Shown: positions 4,418 to 22,552, counted from the stretch's first letter. The stretch is 42,187 bases of DNA from Candidatus Desantisbacteria bacterium (GCA_043806395.1 JAZDHC010000154.1:1-42187); one strand, 5' to 3'. Notes: generated by a model not told the origin, from the letters alone. Translations and numbers: made by a program.

Positions 4418-7400
4418 CTACCTTATCACCGCCAATTTACCATACCGTTTGCCCTGCGTATTACTGATCATGTACAGATAGACACCGCTGGCTACAGATT
4501 GTCCATCGCTATTTGTCAGGTCCCACTTTGCCTCTGTTGCCTTTGTGCCATCAACATCCGTGAGGGTTTGGACTAATTCACCGCTTAGGGTAAATATTTT
4601 GATTGTTGCCTTGCCAGAGAAATCAAACCGCATGTGCGAGAGCGTAGTTGGGTTTGGGTATATCTTCAGGTCGGCAAATCCTGGAATGCTTGATTTTTTG
4701 GCAATGCCATCAGCCTTAGCAATAATCTGGAAATGCCTGATATTGGATTCACCATCAATGGCTGATGAGTGATAGGTGCAACCTGTGCCTGCTCGCATAT
4801 CTATGGAAAGGCTTGTTTCTATATCCTTCAGACTTAACCCATACCCGGCTGGCAATTGCTCCTTATCCCAGCTAATGTTTACATCCCCGGAAAGGTTTGT
4901 CCTGATAGCAGCATCCCAGGCTATCACACCATCACCAACCTGTCGCATATCCCAGTCAAATCTGTCAAATATATCCTCCTCTGGATGGGTGAAGTACAGG
5001 CTGACAAATTTACCCTGCGGCTCTGGTGGCTCTGGTCTGTCATTCATATCAAGCCCGATGGATGAATCACGACTTATACCAAATCGAGGACAATAATTTG
5101 CCTTGTCCTCATATCCCCCGGCTGTAATGTGCAACCCAACTTGCCATGTATCAAGGGATACCACAACTGGTGATAACTGAAGGCTATTTGTGGTAGTGCT
5201 ACTGGCTGATATATTCGGCACAATCAACTGGCAATCACTCAATGCCGCAAACCAATATCCCTGCCATGGCTCAAGTCTGTTTGCCAACTGATAATTTCCA
5301 TCCACGAATCCATACAAGACATCCATGACCCAGCCAGAAGCCACTGCTTCCTTTAATCCCTTCCTCACCCCATCCTTTTGCACTGCAACCTTTGACCAAT
5401 CAGGGGTAAAATCAAACGGACAGCCGATCATGTTCCAGCCAGTCTGTAGGGGAATGGTAAATTCAGATGAGGATGATATCGCCCCTTCAGGTAAATCAAG
5501 ATTAATCGTTGCATCGTCCAGTAAGCCAAGCCAGTAGCCTTTGCCCAATCCCAACTTTGAGTAGACTTGAGTGTAGCCTGCCCGATTATATTCATAAATG
5601 TAGTTAGCTTTATCATAGCCCATCATCCCAAATACCGATGACTTGACTGGCATGGAGACCATGTGCCAGCCAGAGGAAAACCGCTGGCTGATTATCGGAG
5701 GCTTCACCGAGAGGCTGAATTGCCTCAAGCCATCGCTGTCAGACTTAAAAACCACAGGGGCAAGAGATCGGACAGGGACGAGTCCCCTGCTTTTGACAGA
5801 GGCAAGCTCTGTCCCTACACTTAGATTCCATGTTTGTCCACTTTCCGTATCCGTAAGCATTATTTCATATCCCTTTGTGTTACCCACAATATTTTCCATT
5901 GTCAGGGTAATCTCTGTCCCGGCTGGCATATTTGTCTGCACCTCAAATAAATACTGGTTATTCCCATACATCTGCCGCATATCCTGCATAAATTTGCCAA
6001 ACACCAGCCCCCACTCCGGATGTGGAAGGTATATCTGGATGTAGTTACCCTGTGATGGTGGTGGTGGCAAAGGCAGGTCATTCCATTGATCAAAGCCATC
6101 TGTTGATCCATAAGAATCAGCACCAAGCTGTATGCTTGCCAGCTGACCACCCACAGAGGCAGTTATGGGAAGCAACCACTGTCCATATTCCTCAATAGGT
6201 GAAATCACTCCATCATCTATGGGTAATATGGGAATACCACCCACAATTGTTTCATCTGAACCATCCACATTGTTGGTGCGATCATCTATGATAATCATGC
6301 CCATATCTGTTTGTTTGCCATTGCTTGCAGTGCCCTGTTTGGGTATTCCACCGGTCTGTATTTTATCGGTATCCATTGGGGTAGCAACTGTCGTACTTGT
6401 GGCAGAACCATTATCCTGGATTCCTGCCTTCGCAGGAATGACATTGGATTCTGTGGCAGAACCGTTATCCTGGATTCCTGCCTTCGCAGGAATGACATTG
6501 GGTTCTGTGGCAGAACCATTATCCTGGATTCCTGCCTTCGCAGGAATGACATTGGGTTCTGTGGTAGAACCATTATCCTGGATTCCTGCCTTCGCAGGAA
6601 TGACATTGGATTCATCCTGGATTCCTGCCTTCGCAGGAATGACATTGGGTTCTGTGGCAGAACCATTATTATTGGGTTCATCCTGGATTCCTGCCTTCGC
6701 AGGAATGACATTGGGTTCTGTGGCAGAACCATTATCCTGGATTCCTGCCTTCGCAGGAATGACATTGGATTCATCCTGGATTCCTGCCTTCGCAGGAATG
6801 ACATTGGGTTCATCCTGGATTCCTGCCTTCGCAGGAATGACATTACCTCTAACCCCTGCCAGCACCTTCAACCCCTGATAATCATCAGCCACAAACACAT
6901 AATCCCCCTGCATTGCCACGCCAAACGCCTTGCCACCTGTCTTATACGAGGATAGGAGGGTTGGCTGTGCCGGGTTGGAGACATCAAGTACGAATAATCC
7001 CGCTGCCTCACAAACCACAAAGGCTACATTGTCCCTGACCATCACATCCCAGGCAAAGCCATTGGTCTTATACGAGCCAGTCTTGACAGGCTTTGCTGGA
7101 TTAGATATGTCAATTATCTGTAATCCACCAGAATAGTCGGCAATATAGGCATATTTCCCAGAAAGCCAGATGTCATAGGCAGAGCCAGGGGTATCATATT
7201 GTCCCACCAATTTTGGACCATACGGATTGGAAACATCTATGACAACAAGTCCGCTACCATCATCTGCCACAAAGGCATACCCATCCCTGACACAAACCCC
7301 TCTGGAAATCCCATCCGTGTTATACTTGCCAATCTTTTTTGGTGTCTGTGGCTTAGAAATATCCACTATCTGTAACCCGGTCGCTCCTGCAGCTACATAG

Positions 7401-10400
7401 GCATAATTTCCAGAGATAGCGATATCATAACAAAAACCATCAATTGCCAGGCTTGAAACAAGAGTAGGCTTGTTGACATTGGATACATCAATCACCATCA
7501 ATCCCTTGGTCCCAGCGGCTGTGTAGGCATAATTGTCCACAACAACTGTATCTCGACAGGAGGAAGCTGTATTGTATTTGCCCGCAAAAACGGGTGAGGC
7601 TGGCTGGCTGATATCCATTATCTGTAGCCCGGCAGTGTCGCAGGACATGTAGGCATAGTTGTTTTTCAGGAATATGCCGTAGGACATGCCATCGGGCTTG
7701 AAACTGGCAATCAGTGTCATTGAACTAACGATTACTGTCCCTGTCCCAACAGCAGTTGCACTCGTTCCAATGGTCCCGTTTCCTGTCTTAACAACAGTTG
7801 CACTTGTCCCAACAACGGTTGTGGAGGTAGTACCTATGGTAATGGTTTTTGTCCCATCAAACACCAGCATCATTGGCTCAGTGGTAAACGACATGACCTT
7901 GCGACCCGTTGACATCATCATGGTCTCTTGATTCTTTGCTGTATTCTGAAGAAACTCCAGCTTGGTATTCTGCCGTTTTCTAAGCGTAAAATATACTGTG
8001 GCAATCGTCCCATTCCCATTGGCACTACCGGTCATCAGTCCGGCGGCATGACTTACAAAGCCGGCAGTATTCTTGATATCAGAGGCAATCTTTGGCAGGA
8101 AGGCATCATCCCCTTTAGTCCGATTAACCGCAAGGACAGTGGGGTCAAAGCCAAGGAAGAAGTCCATGCTGGTTAATGAGGATACACCCTCAACCTTTAT
8201 ATTGACAGGAAATTCTGTATTAACCTTAATTTTATCCATATTTTGGGGCAATTCAAGGAAAAGATGGGCGGATTGGACAGAGACGAGCCCTGTCCCTACG
8301 GCCAACATCGGTGCAAGTTGCACTGTCTGTTGTCCCACTGCCTTGAAATAATTATCCCTTAATATGGCAAAGTCAATTGTATTTACCTTATTATCCCCAT
8401 CAAAATCAGCATTGATATAGCCATTTCTATTCAATGCCCCTGTATCCAACCAGCCAGCATCAGTCTTTGTCTTAAAGTATGCTTCCCGCAGGCGACCAAA
8501 GTCTATGGTATTAACCATAGCGTCACCATCTGCATCACCATTTATCAGGGTCAGGGTGCCAGAGATGGTTACCTGCTGCTGACCAATAACCTCTATACCC
8601 TTCCATATATTTGGTGTGAGACCGGGACCATTTGCACGAATATTTGTTTTGCCCGGTGGAATCCTTTTGAGCAGAAAATAGCCCGCAAGATTGGCAGTTG
8701 TCGTAAGTTTTGTATCTGGTACATCAATATATATTCCAGAATATGATCCAACCCGGGGAATATCAATGGCAACGAATCCGTCCACCCGTCCAAATTCAAC
8801 AATAGATACATTCTTCTGGTCCGTAGCAATAAAGGGAATGTCCCTGGCAACTGAAACAAGTTTTGTCTTTCTGTTTGCATTTTGATTAAAATCAAAGGAC
8901 AATGTAGCATTACCCTTCTTTTTTGCCATAAATATGAACTCGGTAATTGTTCCATTACCCGTGATACTCCCGCTCATTACCCCGGCAGCATAAGAAATGG
9001 CTCCAGTGTCAATCCTTGAGGCTATTTTTTGGATAAAGGCAGTATCCTTAATCCCGATGGATTCAAATAACTCTGGATCAAACGACAGGAATAAATCCAT
9101 GTTTGTCAATCCTACAACCCCCTCTACCCTGATGGTCACGGTAAATGTTTCTCCAACCCCAACCTCACCTGGTGCATCCAACAACAGGGTCGTTTTTACA
9201 CTTGGTGTAAGTGTGGCATAAATATTGGTGGTTTGCTTTGTTTGGACAGAGACAGTACTTGTGAATGGATAATAGTTAACCTTTTGTATGCTCAGGGTAT
9301 GACTGCCGACCATAACATCATTGATGGTCAAGCTGCCTGTGCCAACAAAAATGCCATCAAGGTAAACCTGAGCATCTTTCACATTGGCAGCAACTGAGAT
9401 GAAGCCTGGCGGTGGGACAATGGTTTTGAATGAAAATCGGTAAGCCACTGTCAGCTTATTGCCGGGTAACGAATTATCTCTTGCATCAGTGGAAATGGTG
9501 CAGGCATAGGTGGCATTTTCATTAAATCCATCATTAGTAATGGTCAATTGTGTTTTATCCTCGTTCCACCCAAATACCTTGCCCGAAATATCAGGGGAAA
9601 TGCTGAATGCCTGCTGGACAGCAGTCTGGTTCATGGGCTTGCTGAAGCTGATAATCAGGGGCTTATCCACAGCAATATCCCTTTCTCCATCCTTAATATT
9701 TGCCCCTGTAACTGTGGGCATGATACAATCAATCCGGACATCACCATCACTCATATCATGAGCTGTAGCACTATTTGAATCCGTCACCACAGCCTTTACC
9801 CGCAGGTCAAGGGTATTTGTCCCGGGCACAACCCAGGGGTAAAAAGACAGGGTGCTATCTGTAATAATCGTATTATCAAAGGTTTTGCCTTTATCCATAG
9901 AATAATACAGAGACACCTTATAGGGTGAAACACCACCATTAATATTCCATGTAACATTATTAGATGCTGACCCACTTAAGGTTTCACTCCCATTGGGAAA
10001 TGTAAGGACAACGCTGAGTGTGCCGGGCACAAAATTATAATCCACGGTTACGCTCCCAACAGGAAGCTCTGGAGGCATTGGAATCTCTAATGCTCTCATG
10101 GCATTAGAGCCATCAGTAACGAATGCCAGCCCCTTGTTTATGCTGATATCGTAGCTGTCAGCTATTGGTTTACCACTATTTTCTATATACTTCTGGATGA
10201 GCTTTGGCAGCTTTGGGTTGGAAATATCAATGACTCGCAAGACGAAAACATTGAACAGTGTTGAGTCCTTTTTGTAACTAACCGTATAGGCATAGTTTCC
10301 ACGAACAATGGTTCTATACATTGATTCATCCAACATATCTGCATTGTATTTACCAACAAGTATTGGTGCCTCTGGATTAGAAACATCAATGATTTGAAGC

Positions 10401-11458
10401 CCACCGGCACCATAGGAAAGGTAGGCATAATTTCCAGAGACATAGACAGCACAGGCTTGTGCACCAGCCTTAGCACTTGTCAATTGAACATATCCAGCCT
10501 CTTTTATGTTAGAGGGATCGCTGACATTGAGTATCTTTAATCCAGTAGTAGCATGTGCCAGATAAGCATAATTACCCCGCACATAAACACCATATACTGT
10601 ATTTCGAGTGGCTTGTTCATAGATACCTTTGTCAACAGGCTTTTTTGGATCCGATACATCCACTATCCTTAAGCCAGTAATATGAGCCACGAAGACATAA
10701 TTGCCCAATGGATATATATCATACACTCGGCTTGATATCCCAAAGTTGCCCACCACTGTTGGTGTAGTAGGGCTTCCGACATCAATAATACGAACGCTTG
10801 TTGCCTGAAAGTCACTTTGATAATTGATAAGATAAACGAATTTACCATCCCCGACAAGACCATTTATAGTTCCACTAAGTTCATATTTTCCTACCCTCTT
10901 TGGGGATAAAGGGTTGCTGATATCAAGGCTATACATCCCTTTTGAGCCCTCCCCAAGATAGGCATAATTTCCATTAGTATAAACACCGCAATAGCTTTCA
11001 CCACTGCCAGTATATTTTCCAACAACCGTGACTGTTCCTGTTTTACCTGTGGAAAACTTAAACCTGCCAAGTGCTGGGTCAATGCCTACCTCCCCTGAAT
11101 TTATGGTTATATTTGGCCAGCCAGCCACATCAGACAGGTCAATACCTACTGGTTTTTTCTTGTTCTCTACATTAGTATACTCTGTCGAGCAGACATCTAT
11201 GCCATTATCATATATCCGCATCCCGTCATCAGTATTGAAAAGACTGGGTGCCTCGGTTCGTGAGATGGGCAAGCCATTTCTTCTGGTTAATTGCTTCTCA
11301 GCATTTAATCCGGAAAACTTGAACGAAGCCGGGTTATTGTCTCCGGCATTGCCAGCCGGTTGCTTTCGTATTTCTAAGGCATGGGCAGTGGTGGAGAGGC
11401 AGATAAGGGCGGAGATGATAAGTATTGCCATGGCATGGGGTAGGGATTTATTCAGCAT
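4418..11458 (-). CDS. Giant secreted multidomain surface protein (2346 aa): two LVIVD-repeat propellers, Ig-like domains, PEGA, cohesin-dockerin-cohesin, repeat linker, conserved C-terminal module, T9SS-type (FlgD-Ig-like) CTD
   Basis: - Signal peptide: MLNKSLPHAMAILIISALICLSTTAHA.
- Repeated GLQIIDVSNP / GLRIVDVSDPKKP / GLKILNVSDP motifs (LVIVD).
- PEGA-like VYLDGIFVGTGSL...HTLSIQKVNYYPF.
- Cohesin-like FTVTIRVEGVVGLTNMDLFLSFDP and FPVNIKVEGVSSLTSMDFFLGFDP.
- Dockerin pair DADGDAMVNTIDFGRL / DFDGDNKVNTIDFAIL.
- C-terminus IYPNP...SGVYLYMI...GKLAVIR.
- AAGGAG RBS upstream. Confidence 0.85.
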   Translation of the reverse strand: MLNKSLPHAMAILIISALICLSTTAHALEIRKQPAGNAGDNNPASFKFSGLNAEKQLTRRNGLPISRTEAPSLFNTDDGMRIYDNGIDVCSTEYTNVENKKKPVGIDLSDVAGWPNITINSGEVGIDPALGRFKFSTGKTGTVTVVGKYTGSGESYCGVYTNGNYAYLGEGSKGMYSLDISNPLSPKRVGKYELSGTINGLVGDGKFVYLINYQSDFQATSVRIIDVGSPTTPTVVGNFGISSRVYDIYPLGNYVFVAHITGLRIVDVSDPKKPVDKGIYEQATRNTVYGVYVRGNYAYLAHATTGLKILNVSDPSNIKEAGYVQLTSAKAGAQACAVYVSGNYAYLSYGAGGLQIIDVSNPEAPILVGKYNADMLDESMYRTIVRGNYAYTVSYKKDSTLFNVFVLRVIDISNPKLPKLIQKYIENSGKPIADSYDISINKGLAFVTDGSNAMRALEIPMPPELPVGSVTVDYNFVPGTLSVVLTFPNGSETLSGSASNNVTWNINGGVSPYKVSLYYSMDKGKTFDNTIITDSTLSFYPWVVPGTNTLDLRVKAVVTDSNSATAHDMSDGDVRIDCIMPTVTGANIKDGERDIAVDKPLIISFSKPMNQTAVQQAFSISPDISGKVFGWNEDKTQLTITNDGFNENATYACTISTDARDNSLPGNKLTVAYRFSFKTIVPPPGFISVAANVKDAQVYLDGIFVGTGSLTINDVMVGSHTLSIQKVNYYPFTSTVSVQTKQTTNIYATLTPSVKTTLLLDAPGEVGVGETFTVTIRVEGVVGLTNMDLFLSFDPELFESIGIKDTAFIQKIASRIDTGAISYAAGVMSGSITGNGTITEFIFMAKKKGNATLSFDFNQNANRKTKLVSVARDIPFIATDQKNVSIVEFGRVDGFVAIDIPRVGSYSGIYIDVPDTKLTTTANLAGYFLLKRIPPGKTNIRANGPGLTPNIWKGIEVIGQQQVTISGTLTLINGDADGDAMVNTIDFGRLREAYFKTKTDAGWLDTGALNRNGYINADFDGDNKVNTIDFAILRDNYFKAVGQQTVQLAPMLAVGTGLVSVQSAHLFLELPQNMDKIKVNTEFPVNIKVEGVSSLTSMDFFLGFDPTVLAVNRTKGDDAFLPKIASDIKNTAGFVSHAAGLMTGSANGNGTIATVYFTLRKRQNTKLEFLQNTAKNQETMMMSTGRKVMSFTTEPMMLVFDGTKTITIGTTSTTVVGTSATVVKTGNGTIGTSATAVGTGTVIVSSMTLIASFKPDGMSYGIFLKNNYAYMSCDTAGLQIMDISQPASPVFAGKYNTASSCRDTVVVDNYAYTAAGTKGLMVIDVSNVNKPTLVSSLAIDGFCYDIAISGNYAYVAAGATGLQIVDISKPQTPKKIGKYNTDGISRGVCVRDGYAFVADDGSGLVVIDVSNPYGPKLVGQYDTPGSAYDIWLSGKYAYIADYSGGLQIIDISNPAKPVKTGSYKTNGFAWDVMVRDNVAFVVCEAAGLFVLDVSNPAQPTLLSSYKTGGKAFGVAMQGDYVFVADDYQGLKVLAGVRGNVIPAKAGIQDEPNVIPAKAGIQDESNVIPAKAGIQDNGSATEPNVIPAKAGIQDEPNNNGSATEPNVIPAKAGIQDESNVIPAKAGIQDNGSTTEPNVIPAKAGIQDNGSATEPNVIPAKAGIQDNGSATESNVIPAKAGIQDNGSATSTTVATPMDTDKIQTGGIPKQGTASNGKQTDMGMIIIDDRTNNVDGSDETIVGGIPILPIDDGVISPIEEYGQWLLPITASVGGQLASIQLGADSYGSTDGFDQWNDLPLPPPPSQGNYIQIYLPHPEWGLVFGKFMQDMRQMYGNNQYLFEVQTNMPAGTEITLTMENIVGNTKGYEIMLTDTESGQTWNLSVGTELASVKSRGLVPVRSLAPVVFKSDSDGLRQFSLSVKPPIISQRFSSGWHMVSMPVKSSVFGMMGYDKANYIYEYNRAGYTQVYSKLGLGKGYWLGLLDDATINLDLPEGAISSSSEFTIPLQTGWNMIGCPFDFTPDWSKVAVQKDGVRKGLKEAVASGWVMDVLYGFVDGNYQLANRLEPWQGYWFAALSDCQLIVPNISASSTTTNSLQLSPVVVSLDTWQVGLHITAGGYEDKANYCPRFGISRDSSIGLDMNDRPEPPEPQGKFVSLYFTHPEEDIFDRFDWDMRQVGDGVIAWDAAIRTNLSGDVNISWDKEQLPAGYGLSLKDIETSLSIDMRAGTGCTYHSSAIDGESNIRHFQIIAKADGIAKKSSIPGFADLKIYPNPTTLSHMRFDFSGKATIKIFTLSGELVQTLTDVDGTKATEAKWDLTNSDGQSVASGVYLYMISNTQGKRYGKLAVIR
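6390..6850 (-). repeat. Nine in-frame copies of a palindromic REP-like unit (core ggattcctgccttcgcaggaatgacatt) encoding NVIPAKAGIQD, with or without an NGSATEP spacer
   Basis: Each unit has an 8-bp stem attcctgc/gcaggaat. Unit lengths are all multiples of 3. The track shows four reading frames open across the array (6165..6878, 6311..6955, 6295..6843 and the parent ORF). Confidence 0.9.
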
Positions 11459-11570: not shown

Positions 11571-13325
11571 CTAATTCATTACTTCCCCATCATCTATTGG
11601 TGCAATATCCATGAATTTGAAATGCGTGCTTGCGGCATTTTTTAATCCATTGTCTGTCCCTTGGTTGATGGTCACCGCTGGTGGTGCAGGAACATTTACG
11701 CTGGTCGTATTCACTTCAGGTGCTAATGGTGGTGCCTTGTTGGGGGTAGCACTATCACCAGAGGATGCCTGTGGTGAACCTGCAACTGTAGTCGTGCCTT
11801 GTTGTTCCTTGCTGGCAGGGGCAGGGGGTGGGGTTTGCTTTGTGTTCATGGGCGTTATTGTATCCACCTTGCTGGTTGCGGTCCCGCTGGCAGGGGTAGC
11901 ACCGTCCCCAGCCTTTGCCTGTGATGAGCCTGTAGGCGTGCCTACAATCGATGCAGTTGTTGCATCATTGTTGACCGTGGACTGCGGACTATTGACTGTC
12001 GTGACTATCGCAGTCGTACCAACAACTGGTGCTGCATTCCCGCTGATTACTGCTGGCGTTGTTGTGGTCGCATCAGTAATAGATGTTGCTGATTTATCCA
12101 CCGCAGTCGCTGTCTCCTCTCCACCATCAAAATCTATCCCATCCGCAGCCTTATCAAAATCAACAATCTTTTTCACCTCCGCAGCTTCTGTTGTGGTTGC
12201 CGTACCCTTTGCTGTCTCTAATGGGACATTAATGCCCGGCAGCACAGGCATCTTTTTCTTATCATCCTTCTTTTTCTTCAAATGCTCCGGGAAGTTTTTC
12301 TCCTCAATAAACATCCCCAGAGCAAACCGTTGTACGGCTATCCATGGAACTAATGGCTCTTTCTTCTTTTCCCCTGTTTCTAATAGCATCATCCTTTGCT
12401 TTGGCTTTGGTGACCCAAACCTTAGTGAGGTTGAGAGGCGATGAGCATTACCGAGAGAGTCATACGGGGCAAAGGCATAATCAAGTAAACACTTATTACC
12501 TGTTATTCCAAATCCAAAACCAAATTTTCCTGTATCTGCTCCCATTCTATACCCTGCCCGAAGCATGGTATTAAGCCCTGCCACCTTTGGCATGGTTCGT
12601 TCAATACCAAGGTTTGTGGTTCGTTGTCCATCATTGGGCATATTCACATCCATACAAATGATAGAATTAGTCAATTGATAGCTTAGCCCAAATCTCATCC
12701 GAAATGGCATTGGGTCATCAACTACGCCCTGCTTTTTATCACTGGCTTTTATGCCAATATTTTGTACAACTGCCCCAACCACCAGATTGTGTATTGGGGT
12801 ATGGCATAATCCGCCAAGGTCAACCACAAGATTGCTGGTATTCTTATTATCAATGCCCTGTTTTACGAATTTTAATCCTGCCCCAATAGCTGCACCTTGT
12901 CCAAACATCCGGCTAACAGCAAGGGACATGGCCATATCATTTGCCTTAAAATCACTGTTCATGTTGCCATTAGTCTTATTATACCTTTTTATCCCATCCA
13001 CCCCAAGCATGGACAATGATACCCCCAATGCCCCTTTATTCTTGTTGGGACGGACGAAAGCAAGGTATTCACTGTTAACATCTTGAAAATAAGAAAGATG
13101 CGTGGCCATAACCTCTGTTTGCGTAAGCTGAGAAAGACCAGCAGGATTCCAATAAATGGCACTAATATCATCTGCTAATGCACAAAATGCCTCTCCCATG
13201 CCTGCGGCACGGGCACCAACACCTATTTTCAGAAATGCTGCCCCAGACTTGCCTGTATCCTTTGCCTCAACCCCACTGACTGATACCATTCCAATAATCA
13301 ACAAAAATATCACTCGTTTTATCAT
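11571..13325 (-). CDS. PorV/PorQ-family-like outer-membrane beta-barrel with a ~280-aa low-complexity C-terminal extension
   Basis: Signal peptide followed by GAAFLKIGVGARAAGMGEAFCALADDISAIYWNPAGL, the hallmark PorV/PorQ N-terminal motif. The barrel ends in an OMP-type beta-signal ...NAHRLSTSLRF at aa 305, after which a T/A/P/K-rich tail continues. I moved the start to ATG 13325 because AAGGAG lies 7 nt upstream; the track start 13331 is a GTG. Confidence 0.6.
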   Translation of the reverse strand: MIKRVIFLLIIGMVSVSGVEAKDTGKSGAAFLKIGVGARAAGMGEAFCALADDISAIYWNPAGLSQLTQTEVMATHLSYFQDVNSEYLAFVRPNKNKGALGVSLSMLGVDGIKRYNKTNGNMNSDFKANDMAMSLAVSRMFGQGAAIGAGLKFVKQGIDNKNTSNLVVDLGGLCHTPIHNLVVGAVVQNIGIKASDKKQGVVDDPMPFRMRFGLSYQLTNSIICMDVNMPNDGQRTTNLGIERTMPKVAGLNTMLRAGYRMGADTGKFGFGFGITGNKCLLDYAFAPYDSLGNAHRLSTSLRFGSPKPKQRMMLLETGEKKKEPLVPWIAVQRFALGMFIEEKNFPEHLKKKKDDKKKMPVLPGINVPLETAKGTATTTEAAEVKKIVDFDKAADGIDFDGGEETATAVDKSATSITDATTTTPAVISGNAAPVVGTTAIVTTVNSPQSTVNNDATTASIVGTPTGSSQAKAGDGATPASGTATSKVDTITPMNTKQTPPPAPASKEQQGTTTVAGSPQASSGDSATPNKAPPLAPEVNTTSVNVPAPPAVTINQGTDNGLKNAASTHFKFMDIAPIDDGEVMN

Positions 13326-13364
13326 TGACACACTCCTTAATATTTATTGCTTTAATTAGGATAA

Positions 13365-13480: not shown

Positions 13481-15864
13481 ACCGCTATCTTGCATGTCTC
13501 CACCTTTCCACCGGCAGTAAGCACGCAAAAGTAAACCCCATCCGCTACGATATTGCCATCCTTGCTTCTGCCCTGCCATGGGATGTGATGACCACCCAGT
13601 TTTGGCTCCAAATCATCCCCCTTGCCTTCCCATTCCCAGATAAGTTCACCAGCTAAGTTGTAAACCTCCATAAAAGCACTATCCACCTTGTTTGGCAAAT
13701 TGTAGAAAATAACCGTACCATCCGTTGTTGCAGTAGTACTGCCAATATATACCGTATCTCCATCACACGGATCAAATGGATTTGGATAATTATGCAAATC
13801 TACCTCATGGGAAATCACCGGTGCAAGTGGTACAAGCATAACCTCTTCAACCGTACTCACATTATTTGGCTTTATTGAAACAGCCTTCATGGCATAACCT
13901 GTTTTATAACCATCCTTAAATACCATAACAGAGTATGTACCCATTGGTATTCCATCAAGGCTATACCTGCCTGTGTTATCTGTATAACCAGTACTTGCCA
14001 CTACCCCTGTCTCTTGTTGATTTATTTTCACTTGGGCATTATAAACGGGTATACCCTGATTGGTCACCGTACCTGCAACCCCTCCGGTGGGTACAAAATC
14101 AAAGGGCATAAACCGTTGAATTCGGTGATTGCCGGTGTCTGCAATATAGATATTATTCTTATCATCTATGGCTATTCCCTCTGGAGAAAATATCTGTCCT
14201 TGAGCCATTCCCTCCTGCCATGGATAGATACCAAGCTGATTCCCCAGTCTATCCATGATATGCAGGCACCTATTTACTCTATCTAAGATGTAGAGCCGAT
14301 TTAATGAATCCTTTGCAATGCCGCAGGGATACTGGAATTGTCCATCATCCTCATCAAGTCCTGGCTTACCTATTGTCCTGAGTTGTCCACCTTTCTCATC
14401 AAAAACCCTGATCAAATGCTCAGTATGACAAACCACGAAAACCTCTCTTGAAGTAGCACTTGTTTCTATCACCTCTATATCTAATGGCATATTAAGAACA
14501 GCCCATTTGGTAATCATATTCCCGTTCCGATCCAATACCTGTATTCGATTATTAGAGGTGTCAACTATATAGGCATTCCCGATTGAATCAATGGCTATAT
14601 CCTGCGGGTACTTAAATTTACCCTCCCCTGATCCAAGCTCTCCCCAACTGTCAATAAACACCCCGTTATTATTAAAGCGTTGAATGCGACTATTGTAAGA
14701 ATCCGTAATATAGACCCTATTGTTATTATTTCTATCTATGGCAATCCCGGTTGGGGTATCAAACAGCCCTTTCTCAAGCATGGATGACTTACTGCCCCAC
14801 GCAGTAATAAATTTGCCGTCTTGAGTAAACTTCTGAATCCTATGATTATCTTTATCTACAACGAACATATTGCCATTAGAGTCAAAAGCCATATCTACAG
14901 GTGAATTAAATCTTCCCGTTTCAAAGCTGTTTTTACTTAATAAGCTTATAAAATTTCCTTTATTATCAAACCTCTGTATACAATTATTTTTTCTATCTAC
15001 AGCATAAACTGTTCCTTCTTTATTAACAAACAACCCGGCTATATCCCCAAATTGTCCAGCCCTGAACCCTGTCTTACCACCCCATCCACATTTTTTCTGG
15101 AAATCCAGCCCAAAGCCATAGATATATTCATATTTTCCATTCATATCCTCTTTCTTTGCAGTTAGATAGATGGATTGGTTATTATTGGTTGCAATCCCGG
15201 TCAGTGTCCCAAGACTTTCATCCTTCAGGCATACAGATATCATGGTAAAGGTACCCTCAATATATATCTTCTGGATACGATGATTACCTGTATCAACAAC
15301 ATATAACATGAAGTCAGTAGGGTTATAAACAATATCCAAAGGGGCTAAAAACTGTCCTGAGCCTGTCCCTGTCTCCCCTATCTTGCGAATAGACAATCTC
15401 TTGCCATCAAACTCCCAGATACAGCCTTTATCGCTATCAGTCACATATACTAAGCCATTTCTGCCAATTGTTATCCCGCAAGGCTTGCCAATATCCCCCT
15501 TGCCCCACACACCAAAAACGACACCATCTTTGTTTAATCCCAGAACGCACTTAAGATCAGCATCTATCACAAAGATGTTTCCTTTATTATCCGCAGCCAC
15601 ACCAATGGGTTTAGAAAGCATGTCCAGATCATTTCCATAAAACTCCTTCTCCAGCTCACCCTTTGGATTAAACCTCTGCACACATTTTTTGCCTGTATTT
15701 GCCACAAACATATAGCCATCAGTATTCACAGATACATCTGACGGCTTATCAAAATCATACTTATGATATTCCCCAGGGAATTCGGCAGAAAATACAAGAT
15801 CCTTGGCATAAACACTGCCTGTTATTAAACATAATATCAACCCTAACCATAATATCTTTTTCAC
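13471..15864 (-). CDS. Secreted NHL-repeat beta-propeller protein with a carboxypeptidase-regulatory-like domain and a FlgD-Ig/T9SS-type CTD
   Basis: - Signal peptide: MKKILWLGLILCLITGSVYA.
- Many NHL-type blades (…VYVTDSDKGCIWEF, …VVDTGNHRIQKI, …VVDKDNHRIQKF, …ITDSYNSRIQRF, …IVDTSNNRIQVL, …IADTGNHRIQRF).
- GVAGTVTN...TGRYSLDGIPMGTYSVMVFKDGY.
- C-terminus YPNPFDP...DGVYFCVL...KIAVKK.
- GTG start with GGAGG upstream. Confidence 0.85.
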   Translation of the reverse strand: MKKILWLGLILCLITGSVYAKDLVFSAEFPGEYHKYDFDKPSDVSVNTDGYMFVANTGKKCVQRFNPKGELEKEFYGNDLDMLSKPIGVAADNKGNIFVIDADLKCVLGLNKDGVVFGVWGKGDIGKPCGITIGRNGLVYVTDSDKGCIWEFDGKRLSIRKIGETGTGSGQFLAPLDIVYNPTDFMLYVVDTGNHRIQKIYIEGTFTMISVCLKDESLGTLTGIATNNNQSIYLTAKKEDMNGKYEYIYGFGLDFQKKCGWGGKTGFRAGQFGDIAGLFVNKEGTVYAVDRKNNCIQRFDNKGNFISLLSKNSFETGRFNSPVDMAFDSNGNMFVVDKDNHRIQKFTQDGKFITAWGSKSSMLEKGLFDTPTGIAIDRNNNNRVYITDSYNSRIQRFNNNGVFIDSWGELGSGEGKFKYPQDIAIDSIGNAYIVDTSNNRIQVLDRNGNMITKWAVLNMPLDIEVIETSATSREVFVVCHTEHLIRVFDEKGGQLRTIGKPGLDEDDGQFQYPCGIAKDSLNRLYILDRVNRCLHIMDRLGNQLGIYPWQEGMAQGQIFSPEGIAIDDKNNIYIADTGNHRIQRFMPFDFVPTGGVAGTVTNQGIPVYNAQVKINQQETGVVASTGYTDNTGRYSLDGIPMGTYSVMVFKDGYKTGYAMKAVSIKPNNVSTVEEVMLVPLAPVISHEVDLHNYPNPFDPCDGDTVYIGSTTATTDGTVIFYNLPNKVDSAFMEVYNLAGELIWEWEGKGDDLEPKLGGHHIPWQGRSKDGNIVADGVYFCVLTAGGKVETCKIAVKK

Positions 15865-16069: not shown

Positions 16070-18808
16070 TCACTCAAACTCTATCTCCGCCTCTTTCTCA
16101 GCCATGCCAAAATTAATCCCTTCAATCTCCTGCTCTGGCTTAAGATCCACATCAAAAAATTCAGGGGTAGTCATAACATATCCCTTTGGCAAACCAGACT
16201 TATCCATTCGCATCCGTATTTTGTTTGGCGGGATATTGGTAAACCTGTACAACCCACCGGATTCAGTAAAGGTAGGGGCATCATTAGCATACACAATTAT
16301 ATCACTATCACTGGTCTCCCCTGCATCCAAAACACCGTTCCTGTTCTCATCTATGAAAACCCTGCCATGAATAGTTCCAGCCTTCTGGAGTGGAAATTTA
16401 AGCTCAATACCCTTGCCTGCTTCTACCTTGATTGTTTGTTCCAACTCTGCCACGCAGATAAAATCAATGGGTACTGAACCAAGGTCAATATTCAGGTTAT
16501 AGACCCCAACAGGGACATCCACAAAACATGCCTTTCCATTCTCTCCTGTCATAGTCACCTTTGCCTTATCCTTAGTTTCACTCTTTCCAAAGATAGCAAC
16601 CTTTATTCCGGGAAGACCCTCTTCATTAGCTGAAAACACCCTGTTTGCATCCTCATCCTTAAAAACGCTGATGGATACAACGCCAAGTTTGGAAAACTCA
16701 TTTTTATCAGGCAATTTTTTGGAGATAGAGGTCATATCATCCGGGGTCACGCCAAAACGAAACTCCTTTGCCTCTGTAAACTTTATATCATTTGCCATGT
16801 ACTTAAGATAGTTCTGCCTGTTCTTTTCACGAAAGGTAAAACTCACCTTCCAGTTAAATTTTTGCTCATTTTTAGAAAAAAATTCCAGGTCCATGTTTAA
16901 TGGATAATTGGGAAATTTATATGTCAAATTTGCCTTTTTCTCTGTACTCATCCTTTCCACGAAGTTTATCTTGCCATTGCTCTTATATTGGTTTTCTTCC
17001 CTCTGGCACACCCGCTGCAAGCTCCCGGTAAGATTACGGGTCAGTTTTTTCTTAACCCCAACAGTAATGTTTTCTCTGTTAATGTCACTATTGGCAATGG
17101 TTTGATCATCTATACCTGTTATATTATAACTAACCCACGGATTAAACCCATTGTAAGAATATCGCAGGCTGATATCCCTTTTAAGGGAGAACTGCTCCTT
17201 CAGCTTGTCCTTTGAAATACTATCAGTCCTTTCCAGACCTATCCCTGATGAGACAGAGAGAGGAAATTGCGGCAAAAAATCCATCTTTACAGACAGATAA
17301 TTTACCAGATTCTTATCATTTTGATTAATTAACTCCCTGAAACTCTGCTGCTTTGTAAGTGTCAGGGTAAACTCTTTGGAAAAATTCCATCTATACCCTG
17401 AATTCCAACTATATCCCAAGCTCTTAGTATTAGAAGAGCCTGATTCACCATTAGAGAATGCCCCGTCAATCCAGAACTTTTTCCCCAGCTTAAACTTACC
17501 ATCAAGTTTCCACAGGGAGGTATTATTTGCTACCCAGGGGCTATTTGCAACAGAGTATTCGGTATTCAGCTTAATCTCCCCTACCCTTCTGGAATCAAAT
17601 GAGCTATTTATCTTCCATCTATTAATATCATTGTATGAAACCTGTCCGTTTGAACTTGAGTATTCGCCATTTAACTGCATATTGCCTATTTTAGTGGCTG
17701 TGCCATAGCCAGTGCTTAATTTCCAGATGGAAGTATTGCTGCCAATATTATGATATTTTCCATGAGGAGATGTTATCGAGTATTCACCATTAACCTTCAT
17801 GCTGCCCCGTCCGGTGGCTGTACCATAGCCAGTTGATAACCGTAAGTTCGAGGCATTGCCATCATCAGAAAAGCCCATCCCCATGCTTGCTCCATTGAAG
17901 CCATACGAACCATTCAGTGCCAGAGCCTGCTTGGCATTAATCAAGGAATACTTAAAATCACTGGAAACCCTTTTCAACTTAAACACCCCTCCTATCCGAT
18001 ACCCATCTCCACCAAAACTACCTGTTTGATAATCCATGCTCATGTTCATGGGATAAACGGTTGTGGTTGTTGTAGCAGTTGGTAGTTGGCAGTTGACAGT
18101 TGACAGTTGACAGTTGACAGTTGACAGGACAGAACTGCTGCCGACTGCCGACTGACTGCTCTGTGTTCCTGCGGACTGCTGACTGCTGACTGCCAACTGA
18201 CTGCTCTGTGTTCCTGCCGACTGCTGACTGGCAACTGCTGACTGACTCCCTGTCTCCCCCGCCACTTTCCAGAACAAGAGGGGCATACTCAAACTACCAC
18301 CAATCGCATCCCCTGCTACAGTATCCTTAAAACAAAAGGTATTAGCGGTGACACCTGATTTAGCAGTCAGATCAATCTTCCCGCCATAAACATCACCACC
18401 TCTACTTGATAATCCCTTAAAGAAAAGAGGCGTGATTCGTTCATGCCATAGTTTTTTATTAGAGGCAAGCCTTACGCCCTTAATCTGTGGGGCAGAGGAC
18501 ATCAGCCCTGTAACCCCTGGCATGATATCCGGACCAATACCCAAATCCACAGAAGGGTTGAAAATATCCACCCGGGTATAGTTAAGCACAAGGCTTTTCT
18601 CTTGCAGGTTTATATTCCCCTTCAATATTGGGCTAAACGAAATCAATCTTTCCCGACCACGAAGGTTCAGGTCAAAATCAACGCTACTTAATCCCTTATC
18701 CGTTCCCTCAATGCCTATGGAATAATTCCCTTCTCCATAAACAGCAAAGGCATTTTCAGAGACAACTGTAGTTAAGGCTATGATAATTGCTACAATATAA
18801 TACATCAT
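16070..18808 (-). CDS. 912-aa secreted, beta-barrel-like outer-membrane protein with C-terminal Ig/SdrD-B-like (carboxypeptidase-regulatory-like) domains; usher-sized, function unknown
   Basis: Signal peptide (…VVSENAFA). The middle ~500 aa is rich in alternating aromatic/Gly/Ser/Asn strands (WKLSTGYGTAT…, LNGEYS…, repeated). The C-terminus GTIHGRVFIDENRNGVLDAGE...GGLYRFTNIPP is SdrD-B-like. The CDS call is solid; the functional label is inference. Confidence 0.8.
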   Translation of the reverse strand: MMYYIVAIIIALTTVVSENAFAVYGEGNYSIGIEGTDKGLSSVDFDLNLRGRERLISFSPILKGNINLQEKSLVLNYTRVDIFNPSVDLGIGPDIMPGVTGLMSSAPQIKGVRLASNKKLWHERITPLFFKGLSSRGGDVYGGKIDLTAKSGVTANTFCFKDTVAGDAIGGSLSMPLLFWKVAGETGSQSAVASQQSAGTQSSQLAVSSQQSAGTQSSQSAVGSSSVLSTVNCQLSTVNCQLPTATTTTTVYPMNMSMDYQTGSFGGDGYRIGGVFKLKRVSSDFKYSLINAKQALALNGSYGFNGASMGMGFSDDGNASNLRLSTGYGTATGRGSMKVNGEYSITSPHGKYHNIGSNTSIWKLSTGYGTATKIGNMQLNGEYSSSNGQVSYNDINRWKINSSFDSRRVGEIKLNTEYSVANSPWVANNTSLWKLDGKFKLGKKFWIDGAFSNGESGSSNTKSLGYSWNSGYRWNFSKEFTLTLTKQQSFRELINQNDKNLVNYLSVKMDFLPQFPLSVSSGIGLERTDSISKDKLKEQFSLKRDISLRYSYNGFNPWVSYNITGIDDQTIANSDINRENITVGVKKKLTRNLTGSLQRVCQREENQYKSNGKINFVERMSTEKKANLTYKFPNYPLNMDLEFFSKNEQKFNWKVSFTFREKNRQNYLKYMANDIKFTEAKEFRFGVTPDDMTSISKKLPDKNEFSKLGVVSISVFKDEDANRVFSANEEGLPGIKVAIFGKSETKDKAKVTMTGENGKACFVDVPVGVYNLNIDLGSVPIDFICVAELEQTIKVEAGKGIELKFPLQKAGTIHGRVFIDENRNGVLDAGETSDSDIIVYANDAPTFTESGGLYRFTNIPPNKIRMRMDKSGLPKGYVMTTPEFFDVDLKPEQEIEGINFGMAEKEAEIEFE
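18076..18124 (-). repeat. Heptanucleotide tandem repeat inside the 912-aa CDS: (CAGTTGA)x5 perfect plus 2 variant units
   Basis: cagttgg tagttgg cagttga x5 encodes STVNCQLSTVNCQL. Two ~45-bp direct repeats (…actgctctgtgttcctgc(c/g)gactgctgactg…) lie at about 18150-18240. Confidence 0.9.
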
Positions 18809-19088: not shown

Positions 19089-19916
19089 CTACTTAACCGC
19101 TTTTGCCGCCTTAATCTCTTCCAGTGTTGTCCAATTATAGGTAGACATTGTAGAGAGTTTTGCCTTTTTCCCGGCCATCTTTGCTGCCCCATAATCAAAG
19201 AATACAACAACTGTATATTCACCCTTAGCCAATTTCACCGGGTCAGTTGTTTCATAATCAATGATCTCTGTAGGCAGGATCATCTGTCCATTAAGATCCC
19301 CCTTTGCCACGGTTTCATCCTTACTATTCTTAATCACGAACTTTCCATCCGGTGCAGGCATAAATAGCGGGACATTGCCAGTATTCTTTACACTAACCTT
19401 TAGCTTCACCCCATTGGCATCGTGATAGGCTTGAATACTCTTAATCTCAATCTTTTTCTCTAAGGTATCAGTTACCTCCAGCCCAAGAAAAGAAACTACC
19501 TCACCAGCTGCCACAACACCACCCTTCTTTTCTAATGGCTTTGTAACAAAACAGGCTAATCCCCAATATCCGCCCTTAGCATCCTTTGGCACCTTAACCG
19601 TATAGCGGACAATCTGGTGTTTATCAGCACCAAGCAAAAAACCCTCTGGTTCAATGATTACCCAATCAGTAAGGCTCTTGGGATTTTTACCTGCTCCAAC
19701 AAATTCCCTTTTTGCCGTACGAGGATCTATAGACCAATCCTTGAGTTGGACCTTGATATAGACCTCTTTATCTGCCCGATTATAGAGATCAAATGTCCCA
19801 TTCTTTGTCTCACCTGGTGCAGCCTGAATCTTCACTACACTCGGCTGCACAGAAACAGCCTCTACATTCACACTGGCAATCAGAAATAACATTGCCATTA
19901 ACCACATTCCTTTCAT
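19089..19916 (-). CDS. Secreted ~275-aa protein, possible PapD-like (two Ig-like domains) periplasmic chaperone
   Basis: I moved the start to ATG 19916 (AGGAGG 5 nt upstream, signal peptide MKGMWLMAMLFLIASVNVEA). The track's N-terminal extension runs through a REP element. VSVQPSVVKIQAAPGETKNGTFDLYNRADKEVYIKVQLKDW follows the chaperone N-domain strand pattern. No canonical motif is certain. Confidence 0.4.
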   Translation of the reverse strand: MKGMWLMAMLFLIASVNVEAVSVQPSVVKIQAAPGETKNGTFDLYNRADKEVYIKVQLKDWSIDPRTAKREFVGAGKNPKSLTDWVIIEPEGFLLGADKHQIVRYTVKVPKDAKGGYWGLACFVTKPLEKKGGVVAAGEVVSFLGLEVTDTLEKKIEIKSIQAYHDANGVKLKVSVKNTGNVPLFMPAPDGKFVIKNSKDETVAKGDLNGQMILPTEIIDYETTDPVKLAKGEYTVVVFFDYGAAKMAGKKAKLSTMSTYNWTTLEEIKAAKAVK

Positions 19917-19940: not shown

Positions 19941-19966
19941 GGGCAGACACATAGGTCTGCCCCTAC
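19941..19966. repeat. REP family A hairpin
   Basis: gggcagacacataggtctgcccctac lies immediately upstream of the 19916 start. Confidence 0.85.
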
Positions 19967-20152: not shown

Positions 20153-20827
20153 CTATCCCACTATCGGAATTAATGTAAATGTCAAGGTATTTGAGTATTC
20201 GCCCTCTGTATACCTTGCCAGATTAGAAACACCAAGCTTAAACACTACCAATCTTGGGTCACTGGTGGACATCTTAACCCCAAAAAGGTATTGCGCCTCA
20301 TTGTGTAATCTCAACCATGTGGCTCTTGCCATATTAGAGCCAGTACTTTCAGATGGATATGTTTGAGCTGATGCCTCTGCCCCTTCGAGCTTGTTTAGTA
20401 ACACATAAGTCTTTTCAGTCTGTACGGTCAGATAAGTATCATCCAATCTTAAAACCCCTTGTGGACCTGCTGGCTGGACACCATGGATATAAAGATTGGC
20501 TCCATCCTGAGCATTAGTAAACAGGGTGATTGAAATAGCATCTGCTCTTTCGGCAAACCCCTTACCAATATCTGAATTTGCCGAATTCATGACATCATTA
20601 TTGGCTGAAGCACCGCCATCAGGATAATTAATAACACTGGCTACCGTTAGATTACGGGCATAATCCTCTGGTCCAGGAGTAATTGTCTCCCTCATATCTA
20701 TGCCAACAAGCTCAATTATCTGTGGCACCTTTAACCCTATTTGAGCATCCTCCTGCTGCATGTCCGCTGCATACCCAGAAACAGCTATCATACCTATCAC
20801 TAACACACCTGACAATATTCGTTTCAT
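20153..20827 (-). CDS. Secreted pilin-like protein, paralogue B (224 aa)
   Basis: I moved the start to ATG 20827 (AAGGAGG upstream, signal peptide MKRILSGVLVIGMIAVSGYA). The track's extension overlaps a terminator hairpin. It aligns along its whole length with 21440..22219 (ADMQQEDAQIGL…ETITPGPEDYAR…IGKGFAER…LFTNAQDGA…WLRLHNEAQYLF…ARYTEGEYSNTLTFTLIPIVG). Confidence 0.75.
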   Translation of the reverse strand: MKRILSGVLVIGMIAVSGYAADMQQEDAQIGLKVPQIIELVGIDMRETITPGPEDYARNLTVASVINYPDGGASANNDVMNSANSDIGKGFAERADAISITLFTNAQDGANLYIHGVQPAGPQGVLRLDDTYLTVQTEKTYVLLNKLEGAEASAQTYPSESTGSNMARATWLRLHNEAQYLFGVKMSTSDPRLVVFKLGVSNLARYTEGEYSNTLTFTLIPIVG

Positions 20828-20949: not shown

Positions 20950-21011
20950 AAAAAAAAATCACGAGACCATGAACATGTCAAAACAAAAGACATGTTCATA
21001 ACCTCGTGATT
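20950..21011 (-). terminator. Rho-independent terminator/attenuator T2 in the leader of paralogue B
   Basis: Minus strand: aatcacgagGTTatgaacatgtc - 9-nt loop - gacatgttcatGGTctcgtgatt, giving 9+11 bp of stem, followed by about 7 T. Confidence 0.6.
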
Positions 21012-21048
21012 TTAATAACACGCCGTAGGGGTGACAAGACACTCCTAC

Positions 21049-21160: not shown

Positions 21161-21200
21161 TGGCATGATTCACTTTTGAACTATGCCACCATTTTTTAAC

Positions 21201-21439: not shown

Positions 21440-22219
21440 TTATCCAACGATTGGCATAAGGGTGAATGTAAGTGTGTTGGTATATTCGCCCTCTGTGTAT
21501 CTCGCTAAATTGGCAATGCCAAGGTTGATAACTATCAGTCTTGGTGCCGCTGTGGACATCTTTACCTCAAACAGGTGTTGAGCCTGATTGTGGATGCGAA
21601 GCCATGAAGATGCTGCTGTGTCTTTTGCATTAGTGCTAAGCTGGAAATCCAGACCATCAACGATTGAACCACCCATACCATCTCTTGGGTTATCCACAAC
21701 GGGAACAGTATTAGAGGGTGTTTTTGTTCCAGCACTCTCTGCCACTGCCATTGTCGTTGCGTTGGCATATGCACCTTCTAAGTCATTCTGCAAGATGTAA
21801 GTCTTTTCTGTGCAGACTGACACATAGGTATCTTCCAATCTTAAAACATTTGCCTGAGTAGCTGGCTGTGAACCGTGAACGAACAACGCTGCACCATCTT
21901 GAGCATTGGTAAATATTGTCATCTCTAAAGCGGCTGTTCTTTCTGCAAAACCCTTGCCAATACCATCATTGGCATCTGTCGTGACATTAGGGTCTCCTGC
22001 TTGATTACCATCTGGAAAATTTACCACTCTTGTTTTTTGCAGATCCCTTGCATAATCCTCTGGACCTGGTGTAATTGTCTCAGACATATCAATACCAGCC
22101 AACTCAATGAGTTGCAAACAATTCAAACCAATTGATGCATCTTCTTGCTGCATATCTGCTGCCATTGCTACTCCACTTGCTAATGCTACTGCTACTACGC
22201 TAACTAATAACTTCTTCAT
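21440..22219 (-). CDS. Secreted pilin-like protein, paralogue A (259 aa)
   Basis: GAGGAG RBS. Signal peptide MKKLLVSVVAVALASGVAMA. The mature N-terminus ADMQQEDASIGL is shared with paralogue B. The C-terminal strand ARYTEGEYTNTLTFTLMPIVG resembles the terminal strand of chaperone-usher-type subunits. Confidence 0.8.
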   Translation of the reverse strand: MKKLLVSVVAVALASGVAMAADMQQEDASIGLNCLQLIELAGIDMSETITPGPEDYARDLQKTRVVNFPDGNQAGDPNVTTDANDGIGKGFAERTAALEMTIFTNAQDGAALFVHGSQPATQANVLRLEDTYVSVCTEKTYILQNDLEGAYANATTMAVAESAGTKTPSNTVPVVDNPRDGMGGSIVDGLDFQLSTNAKDTAASSWLRIHNQAQHLFEVKMSTAAPRLIVINLGIANLARYTEGEYTNTLTFTLMPIVG

Positions 22220-22500: not shown

Positions 22501-22517
22501 AGCAAATTTCATGCCAA
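22501..22517 (-). promoter_or_regulatory. Sigma54 (-24/-12) promoter heading the cluster
   Basis: The minus strand reads TTGGCATGAAATTTGCT, which is TGGCAT-N5-TTGCT with exact GG-N10-GC spacing. It lies about 270 nt upstream of ATG 22219. Confidence 0.55.
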
Positions 22518-22552
22518 AATTAGAAACAGGCAGCTACACATAACTCAACCAA

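Follow-up and report, generated by a model that had tools for sequence, protein, structure and literature searches.

Fibres of outer-membrane bacteria that are held together by donor-strand complementation have so far been ascribed, to our knowledge, to chaperone-usher pili and type V pili. In PapD-type action the groove of a subunit is filled by a strand of the chaperone, and in ushers of the FimD/PapC style a 24-strand barrel with a plug lies between an N-terminal domain and a pair of C-terminal ones. In the attachment complex of the type IX secretion system (T9SS) PorZ is held by PorQ, and we know of no T9SS that is linked to a chaperone-like fibre module. WxLIP proteins have two IgG-like domains, and AlphaFold predicts that they complete the WxL beta-sandwich with a strand that fills its gap in parallel (PMC10599100); the text of that paper mentions neither chaperones nor pili. 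The locus analyzed here lies in a stretch of 42,187 nucleotides of Candidatus Desantisbacteria DNA (GCA_043806395.1 JAZDHC010000154.1:1-42187, below called the window), where seven consecutive open reading frames (ORFs) run on the minus strand from 22219 down to 4418. We put at about even the chance that this locus is a non-canonical chaperone-assisted donor-strand fibre system under sigma-54 control, which evolution has tied to a PorQ/PorV-like module that anchors adhesins with a C-terminal domain (CTD).

All seven genes of the original prediction, which had been made from the sequence alone and gave a signal peptide to every product, are present, and the N-terminus is signal-peptide-like in 7/7 products (for example ...GVAMA/ADMQQ, ...NVEA/VSVQPS, ...NAFA/VYGEG and ...TTAHA/LEIRK). 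In the first four products Pfam and NCBIfam found only the immunoglobulin (Ig)-like domains of a 912-amino-acid (aa) protein and a sub-threshold WxLIP_PGBD match in a 275-aa protein. The window genes together with related loci, referred to as L001-L020, make up the locus set used for comparison.

Small paralogues, chaperone-like protein and large protein

The first two genes encode subunit A (259 aa; 21440-22219, -), the probable major fibre subunit, and subunit B (224 aa from an ATG inside a 269-aa ORF; 20153-20827, -). Their description as paralogues with common terminal motifs holds: they are 53% identical (BLASTP), with ADMQQEDAxIGL as their common mature N-terminus and ARYTEGEY(T/S)NTLTFTL(M/I)PIVG as their common C-terminus. 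In subunit A the N-terminal extension is conserved, an insert that B lacks is hypervariable, and the C-terminus comes just past the 'GxY...TLTFTL' strand; across a 36-member alignment, extension and core are likewise conserved and inserts hypervariable. The chain ends 13 residues past the Tyr of the 'G-x-Y' corner motif, which would leave no room for a further strand, a hallmark of donor-strand subunits. In the AlphaFold model (predicted local distance difference test, pLDDT, 75; predicted template modelling score, pTM, 0.75) the subunit folds into a beta-sandwich that the C-terminal TNTLTFTL closes as its last strand, and Foldseek against the PDB places TLP-1a (9ikj) on top (E 5.9e-4, probability 0.98), followed by TLP-1b, the Pyrobaculum bundling pilus AbpA, FimF/FimG, CS20, CfaB, CsuA/B and cannulae, the named ones among them all being fibres that polymerise by donor-strand complementation. 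The small proteins appear to model as donor-strand-type fibre subunits, with an Ig-like fold apparently without its last strand. What had been called a pilin-like pair of chaperone-usher or SCPU type keeps a fold like that of donor-strand fibre subunits (AlphaFold, Foldseek) and loses the SCPU type, there being no PF05229 match.

The closest relative of the subunit is a 93% identical protein of Candidatus Desantisbacteria CG2_30_40_21. All 97 subunit homologues come from Desantisbacteria or unclassified metagenome-assembled genomes (MAGs), all are named hypothetical and 0 carry a Pfam domain; several paralogues occur per genome, and the family is confined to Desantisbacteria-like genomes. No well-known unrelated family, an outcome that the original prediction had allowed for, matched the paralogues: no Pfam family at all was matched by the 36 subunit family members (E up to 10, noise aside), PapD, usher, fimbrial, SCPU, DUF4402, TasA and WxL models were unmatched when Pfam and NCBIfam were scanned with these members and with all seven proteins, and among PDB sequences the single-sequence subunit searches gave noise (antibody, WD40) and the subunit profiles A1 and A6 found nothing. 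The subunit signal peptides end in ...GVAMA/AD and ...SGYA/AD with no cysteine at +1, and type V pili were rejected because the subunits lack a lipoprotein-type signal peptide. One paralogue is labelled 'right handed beta helix' in UniRef, a label disregarded as contrary to the model.

The third gene (19089-19916, -) encodes a protein of 275 aa, inside a 294-aa ORF, with a signal peptide, two Ig-like domains predicted by homology to WxLIP and no membrane anchor; it ends in ...YNWTTLEEIKAAKAVK and has no hydrophobic segment past the signal peptide. A word-indexed search returned 13 close homologues, one of which is named 'P pilus assembly chaperone PapD' by the Joint Genome Institute (JGI), whose pipeline calls two family members PapD, and a narrower chaperone alignment located only four loci, all Desantisbacteria-type. 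An exhaustive profile search enlarged the family to 4161 cluster representatives (counted at 50% identity), with 833 at E up to 1e-10; the family spans several phyla, a breadth that the original prediction had missed. Its members are mostly 260-290 aa long, and some are tandem-doubled, at about 520 aa.

A 60-sequence profile of this family aligns with EfmWxLIP1 (9i1y, 9i25) over the full length and both domains (E 2.5e-8), and with the fimbrial chaperone EcpB (5dfk) over residues 73-144 (E 2.4e-4). The EcpB alignment pairs 'VrytikvPedakGgyyaviff' with a 21-residue EcpB stretch, and 'agrlgslvyvev' with 'ARIGTILVVAP', a pair that in our reading covers the G1 donor-strand region of the chaperone-usher type. 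Family members match WxLIP_PGBD and WxLIP_HBD weakly or borderline, and three of them match NCBIfam fimbrial-chaperone models weakly; the 275-aa protein itself scores 14.7 bits on PF06030 (WxLIP_PGBD) against a cut-off of 27.3, has no PF11797 match, and in Pfam has no match to PapD_N/PapD_C (PF00345/PF02753) at E up to 0.1. These profile comparisons support homology of the 275-aa family to WxLIP at the superfamily level and place the 275-aa protein as a remote relative of two-Ig-domain strand-donating proteins. The predicted PapD/FimC-like chaperone is accordingly retained as chaperone-like, on its EfmWxLIP1 and EcpB profile matches, and removed from the canonical PapD family; failure of a two-Ig-domain fold, which had been named as a possible objection, is not what homology indicates. 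The scan of canonical families that had been recommended (PF00345, PF02753, PF00577, PF00419, PF05229, DUF4402) gave no matches, and for lack of any canonical family match the locus is not filed as chaperone-usher, SCPU or WxL.

The fourth gene (16070-18808, -) encodes the large 912-aa protein, in which a signal peptide precedes a beta-rich body and two SdrD_B-like Ig domains stand at the C-terminus. The Ig-like domains had been anticipated, and as SdrD_B/CarboxypepD_reg (residues 715-835) they are the whole of its Pfam content. The layout, in which a conserved N-terminal region is followed by a variable low-complexity linker, a body with hairpin-like repeats (WKLSTGYGTATKxGNMxLNGEYS) and the two Ig-like domains, resembles that of an usher by analogy, without detectable usher homology. 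In all of the large proteins the N-terminal signal peptide is the sole hydrophobic helix. The 912-aa protein has homologues in the large proteins of L008 and L020, and between Desantisbacteria and Omnitrophota the homology of large proteins reaches beyond the Ig pair, the alignment covering ~390 columns, part of the beta-rich body among them (hhalign probability 98.6%, E 1.3e-15). Beta-hairpins of 10-14 residues dominate residues 255-660 of its AlphaFold model, which is unreliable, so that they are a hint only. Position and conservation make the protein a candidate outer-membrane assembly platform. A secretin identity of the large protein was rejected, as hhalign against the two secretins that stand beside doubled chaperone-like genes gave a probability of <1%.

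The PorV-like barrel, the CTD proteins and conservation of the cluster

The remaining three genes had been called as an NHL-CTD protein, a PorV/PorQ-like barrel and an LVIVD/dockerin-CTD protein, and Pfam and NCBIfam bear out each call. The NHL beta-propeller protein (797 aa; 13471-15864, -) has NHL x7, a CarboxypepD_reg domain and a weak T9SS-like CTD (TIGR04183 15.3 bits, below the cut-off of 23, with weak CHU_C and FlgD_ig matches). The PorV/PorQ-family (FadL-like, UPF0164) outer-membrane barrel (586 aa; 11571-13331, -) scores 150.7 bits on NF033709 against a cut-off of 90; on the equivalog models PorQ (118 vs 220) stands higher than PorV (58 vs 250), both under their cut-offs. The giant protein (2346 aa; 4418-11458, -) contains LVIVD x11, Big_5, PEGA and dockerin domains, and its T9SS type A CTD reaches 34.1 bits on TIGR04183 (cut-off 23). 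A CTD propeller beside a PorQ-like barrel recalls, by analogy, the PorZ-PorQ pair. T9SS core genes (SprA/Sov, PorK/L/M/N, PorU) were found neither among the window ORFs of >=150 aa, as had been noted beforehand, nor in the flanks of the related loci.

The long low-complexity C-terminal tail of the PorV-like protein takes up ~275 residues (~310-586; window 11571-12400, -) and is lysine/glutamate-rich first and then Thr/Ala/Pro/Ser-rich; its orthologues are 417-557 aa long in all, and tail length varies. A second giant LVIVD protein of 1795 aa with a T9SS-like CTD is encoded at 36411-41798 (-), and ~1 kb downstream of its gene comes a frameshifted PorV-like gene in two pieces (34939-35355 + 34439-34948, -), with no fibre genes. 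The pair of CTD protein and PorV-like barrel thus recurs, and the two modules can exist apart.

The subunit-subunit-chaperone-large order is syntenic in close relatives, as had been expected. All seven genes are kept in the same order in L001-L004, L013 and L014, and in L016 from the chaperone-like gene onward; neighbourhood conservation in related genomes, proposed as a check, therefore includes the tie to the PorV-like and CTD genes. The coupling of a PorV + CTD module to chaperone-usher-like genes recurs in distant relatives. In a deeper branch, whose proteins are 37-43% identical (phmmer/BLASTP), the genes stand compactly in a single run of chaperone-like, large, subunit, NHL-CTD and PorV-like: L020 shows an overlap of the first two genes and 19 nt between the subunit and NHL genes, L005 and L008 overlap the L020-type arrangement, and in all three loci the NHL orthologue directly follows a subunit gene with gaps of 13-40 nt. 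The PorV-like protein is 39% identical to its L005 orthologue. This gene order indicates that the link of the fibre-like genes to the PorV-like/CTD genes is conserved. The contigs of L006 and L014 (DYDG01, GCA_020717845.1) are titled 'Marinifilum sp.' and carry the Desantisbacteria-type cluster, with a chaperone-like protein 81% identical; the DYDG01 MAG is probably mislabelled or mixed.

Related modules occur in other phyla. In L018 (Ca. Velamenicoccus), L010, L011 and L012 a member of the chaperone-like family stands beside 2-6 small unannotated signal-peptide proteins that have the C-terminal motif of the Desantisbacteria subunits (L018, ...AGRYTGTITFTLVLN; L011, ...GRYQGTVTYTLINR; L010, ...GNYQGTVKITLTEN; L012, ...PGSYGLTITFMLSTAV). 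The same loci hold one or two chaperone-like genes, one protein of ~880-990 aa with a C-terminal SdrD_B pair and sometimes a 460-510-aa protein with the common ending. Subunit homology across phyla was rejected as a claim, the likeness being one of shared motif and context only. At 7493-13824 of L018, in the complete genome of the Omnitrophota predator Ca. Velamenicoccus archaeovorus (CP019384), genes for a 510-aa protein, a 249-aa protein, the chaperone-like QAT17153.1 and a 973-aa protein stand in a row, all hypothetical. Tandem-doubled chaperone-like genes (515-517 aa) directly adjoin a secretin in L017 (9001-12386) and L019 (7956-11554). Secretins are outer-membrane export channels, and the position of doubled family members beside them supports a periplasm-to-surface role of the family. 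One doubled chaperone-like gene occurs in the MAG of L005 (AB1414), so that both variants are possible in one organism.

Regulation, proposed mechanism and alternatives

The predicted sigma-54 promoter was found as a -24/-12 element, TGGCATgaaatTTGCT, at 22501-22516 (-), 282 nt upstream of the first subunit gene, and is conserved upstream of related loci: TGGCA(C/T)-N5-TTGC(A/T) precedes the first cluster gene or stand-alone subunit pairs in L001-L004, L006-L008, L013 and L014. The window contains 2 sigma-54-type matches, compared with 0.32 expected by chance. Three exact copies of AATTGGACA, one of them within the palindrome GTCCAATAATTGGAC, lie at 22617-22746 (-), about 100-230 nt upstream of the -24 element, and are a candidate enhancer (upstream activating sequence) to which a sigma-54 activator may bind; in L001, L013 and L014 the motif AATTGGAC is found 207-230 nt upstream of the promoter. 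A divergent two-component pair (23009-25752, +) comprises a histidine kinase (23009-24388) and an NtrC-type sigma-54 activator (24385-25752). A GG-N10-GC -24/-12 promoter and an NtrC-type activator, the two marks of a sigma-54 regulon, are both present as predicted from sequence. An activator gene also adjoins the cluster in L008, at the cluster start, and the closest relatives, L001-L004, are without adjacent two-component genes. The second exact sigma-54-type match, TGGCACaaataTTGCT, is at 3546-3561 (-), 137 nt upstream of a small helix-turn-helix gene (3089-3409, -).

Between genes A and B, at 20950-21008 (-), a hairpin with a 20-bp stem (dG -28.3 kcal/mol) is followed by T9; it is likely to be a terminator or an attenuator after the first gene, and as an attenuator it may set subunit stoichiometry. 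So strong a terminator-like hairpin makes a single operon unlikely. A terminator-like hairpin after the first subunit gene is also typical of major pilin genes, and additional subunit pairs with their own sigma-54 promoter, without assembly genes, stand in L006 and L007; stand-alone pairs and a terminator after gene A together fit a major-subunit economy. The hairpins that had been placed in every gap as repetitive extragenic palindromic (REP) elements are real, although they are not one family throughout: the REP-like hairpin GGGCAGACACATAGGTCTGCCC is present in three tandem copies at 13371-13470, in the gap between the PorV-like and NHL genes, and once at 19941, and the remaining gaps hold different hairpins. 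In L001-L004, at about 3400-7900, the cluster lies downstream of lptB-like, hpf, ptsN, hprK and rapZ genes, presumably the usual neighbourhood of rpoN; no rpoN gene stands between the lptB-like gene and hpf in these four loci. Directly downstream of the giant adhesin gene, at 4100-4417 of the window, GAGTTGR heptamers make up a long array, and after it comes the reverse complement (CTCAACT...); together they could form a very long hairpin.

The mechanism that we propose for a fibre system of this kind would begin with the NtrC-type activator, which at the AATTGGACA sites would switch on the sigma-54 promoter, while the hairpin after the first gene would keep subunit A above the downstream products. 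Subunits A and B would cross the inner membrane via Sec, each chain stopping after the 'GxY...TLTFTL' strand, and the soluble periplasmic 275-aa protein would donate a strand of its own (the 'AAGEVVSFLGLEV' region) to the subunit groove. At the outer membrane the 912-aa protein would take the chaperone-subunit complexes, where each incoming subunit, with its conserved N-terminal extension (ADMQQEDAxVGL...), would displace the chaperone strand as the fibre grows outward. The PorQ/PorV-like barrel would hold the NHL and giant LVIVD proteins at the surface via their CTDs, as PorQ holds PorZ, and both proteins may act with the fibre in attachment. These steps are inferred, export and the physical coupling of the fibre to the PorV-like module included.

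A wider proposal is tentative, and we give it clearly less than even weight: that the locus represents an unrecognised class of chaperone-dependent fibres, widespread in uncultured outer-membrane bacteria (Omnitrophota, Desantisbacteria and others; the literature check was partial), built from a chaperone of the WxLIP kind, from outer-membrane platforms of ~900 aa that form a new family marked by a C-terminal Ig pair (a secretin in the doubled-chaperone variant), and from subunits that the databases leave unnamed; that WxL/WxLIP is linked evolutionarily to chaperone-usher chaperones; and that the Desantisbacteria machine is physically joined to a PorQ/PorZ-like pair displaying CTD adhesins. 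Were it true, such fibres would have a third way of assembly, with a chaperone family and an outer-membrane partner of its own, and a large block of genes now called 'hypothetical' in candidate phyla would gain a function. The means by which organisms such as the Omnitrophota predator Velamenicoccus or Desantisbacteria adhere to surfaces or hosts would be explained as well, the WxLIP proteins of enterococci and Listeria would be recast as strand-donating chaperone-like proteins, and PorV/PorQ-like barrels would have their first link to a fibre system.

Several observations weigh against a chaperone-assisted fibre system tied to an anchoring module. The TM-scores of the Foldseek matches are low (<=0.34) despite the high top probability, making them a fold-class match and not proof. 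When Desantisbacteria subunits are compared with small proteins from other phyla, hhalign aligns only the 17-residue C-terminal motif, with low probability, and that motif also occurs in ordinary Ig domains. No invariant basic pair like PapD Arg8/Lys112 is found across the chaperone-like family. The 912-aa protein is unmatched by PF00577, by any Pfam outer-membrane family and by PDB sequences (single sequence; profile A5), and its AlphaFold model, with nine homologues found, is unusable (pLDDT 33.5). The window has no T9SS core gene that would take the CTD proteins across the outer membrane. The CTD-protein and PorV-like pair at 34439-41798 stands without fibre genes and the Omnitrophota loci are without a PorV-like gene, which keeps physical coupling a proposal, and a terminator-like hairpin and REP-like elements stand between the genes.

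Some of these points are what would be seen if the fibre genes and the CTD-anchoring genes were two independent adjacent modules, both acting at the surface and sharing a neighbourhood and perhaps regulation, with no physical contact. In favour of such independence are the LVIVD-CTD gene with its frameshifted PorV-like neighbour, the fibre modules of Omnitrophota and other loci that have neither a PorV-like nor a CTD gene, the stand-alone subunit pairs with promoters of their own, and the strong hairpin and REP-like elements between genes. This is the alternative that survives best, and we nevertheless hold it to be unlikely, because the adjacency of subunit, NHL-CTD and PorV-like genes is kept at 37-43% identity, with subunit-NHL gaps of 13-40 nt; chance adjacency rarely survives such divergence.

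Improbable, in our estimate, is that the 912-aa protein is instead a secreted tip, anchor or adhesin and that the subunits leave by a T9SS or secretin encoded elsewhere or by a partner of the PorV-like barrel. Its lack of homology to ushers or outer-membrane families, the SdrD_B Ig-like domains typical of adhesins, the Ig-like domains resembling the chaperone-like fold with which the large proteins of L011 and L012 begin, and the pairing of doubled chaperone-like genes with a secretin would all suit such a role. However, the gene is always present in one copy beside the single-type chaperone-like gene, a position fit for an export component; the hairpins in residues 255-660 of the unreliable model are, at 10-14 residues, long for soluble sandwiches; and the protein has neither a C-terminal subunit-like motif nor a CTD.

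The subunit C-terminal YxxxLTFTL may resemble the distal WxL motif. A static WxL-type surface complex, in which the small proteins stay capped by the 275-aa protein as a fixed envelope platform, like that proposed for the '2 WxL + 1 WxLIP' clusters of Lactobacillales, and no fibre forms, is marginally more improbable still, since the full-length homology of the 275-aa family to WxLIP and the presence of two small paralogues with one WxLIP-like protein, the commonest count in WxL clusters (PMC10599100), are set against a 275-aa protein without a C-terminal membrane helix, subunits that no Pfam WxL domain matches, that carry a conserved N-terminal extension and whose model finds its best structural matches among polymerising fibres, a major-subunit economy fitted by several alternative subunit pairs per genome and the terminator after gene A, and a ~900-aa or secretin partner that points to export across the outer membrane.

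Comparison with known systems

The fibre system proposed here has a faint resemblance to the Pam pilus of bacteria of the Candidate Phyla Radiation (CPR), known here by name only (NF058581, CPR_Pam_pilin_C). A weak match (E 0.02; 15 bits, cut-off 55) falls on the common C-terminal motif of the large subunits at L010 4321-5703 and L018 7493-9025; the subunits of the window itself are unmatched by NF058581. The TasA superfamily and other chaperone-free donor-strand fibres are the structures that the subunit model matches best (9ikj, 9ikk, 7ueg, 9h8b), and an N-terminal donor strand is proposed for both; TLP-1a is compared here by its PDB name and fold alone. Unlike those systems, the locus yields no sequence match to them and has no SipW-type signal peptidase, and a dedicated chaperone-like gene is present here.

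With the T9SS attachment pairs (PorQ-PorZ, PorV-cargo) the locus has in common a PorV/PorQ-family barrel beside a CTD propeller protein and a giant CTD adhesin. It differs in that the PorQ and PorV equivalog cut-offs are unreached and that SprA, PorK/L/M/N and PorU are absent from the window. Likeness to the WxL/WxLIP (Csc) clusters of Lactobacillales/Bacillales consists in the homology of the 275-aa family to EfmWxLIP1 (DUF916+DUF3324, 9i1y/9i25) over both Ig domains and in the grouping of one WxLIP-like gene with two small paralogues. In contrast to those clusters, the host has a predicted outer membrane, the WxLIP-like protein has no membrane helix, an extra ~900-aa protein is encoded, and the partners are without a WxL domain (PF13731, 0/36 subunit family members).

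The chaperone-usher pili (Pap/Fim, alternate ECP, archaic Csu/CupE) differ from the locus in that it shows no PapD_N/C, Usher, Fimbrial or SCPU matches and no conserved basic anchor pair, in that its large protein has no usher similarity, and in that it is sigma-54-driven and tied to a PorV-like barrel and CTD proteins. Membership in the classical chaperone-usher, SCPU, WxL and type V classes is excluded, as their defining features, when tested, were not found. Even so, the locus shares with chaperone-usher pili a set of several small secreted subunits, a periplasmic protein of ~270 aa with two Ig domains and a protein of ~900 aa that has a signal peptide and carries two Ig-like domains at its C-terminus; FimF/G, CfaB and CsuA/B are among the matches of the subunit model, the family profile aligns with EcpB, and the locus plausibly works in a chaperone-usher-like manner.

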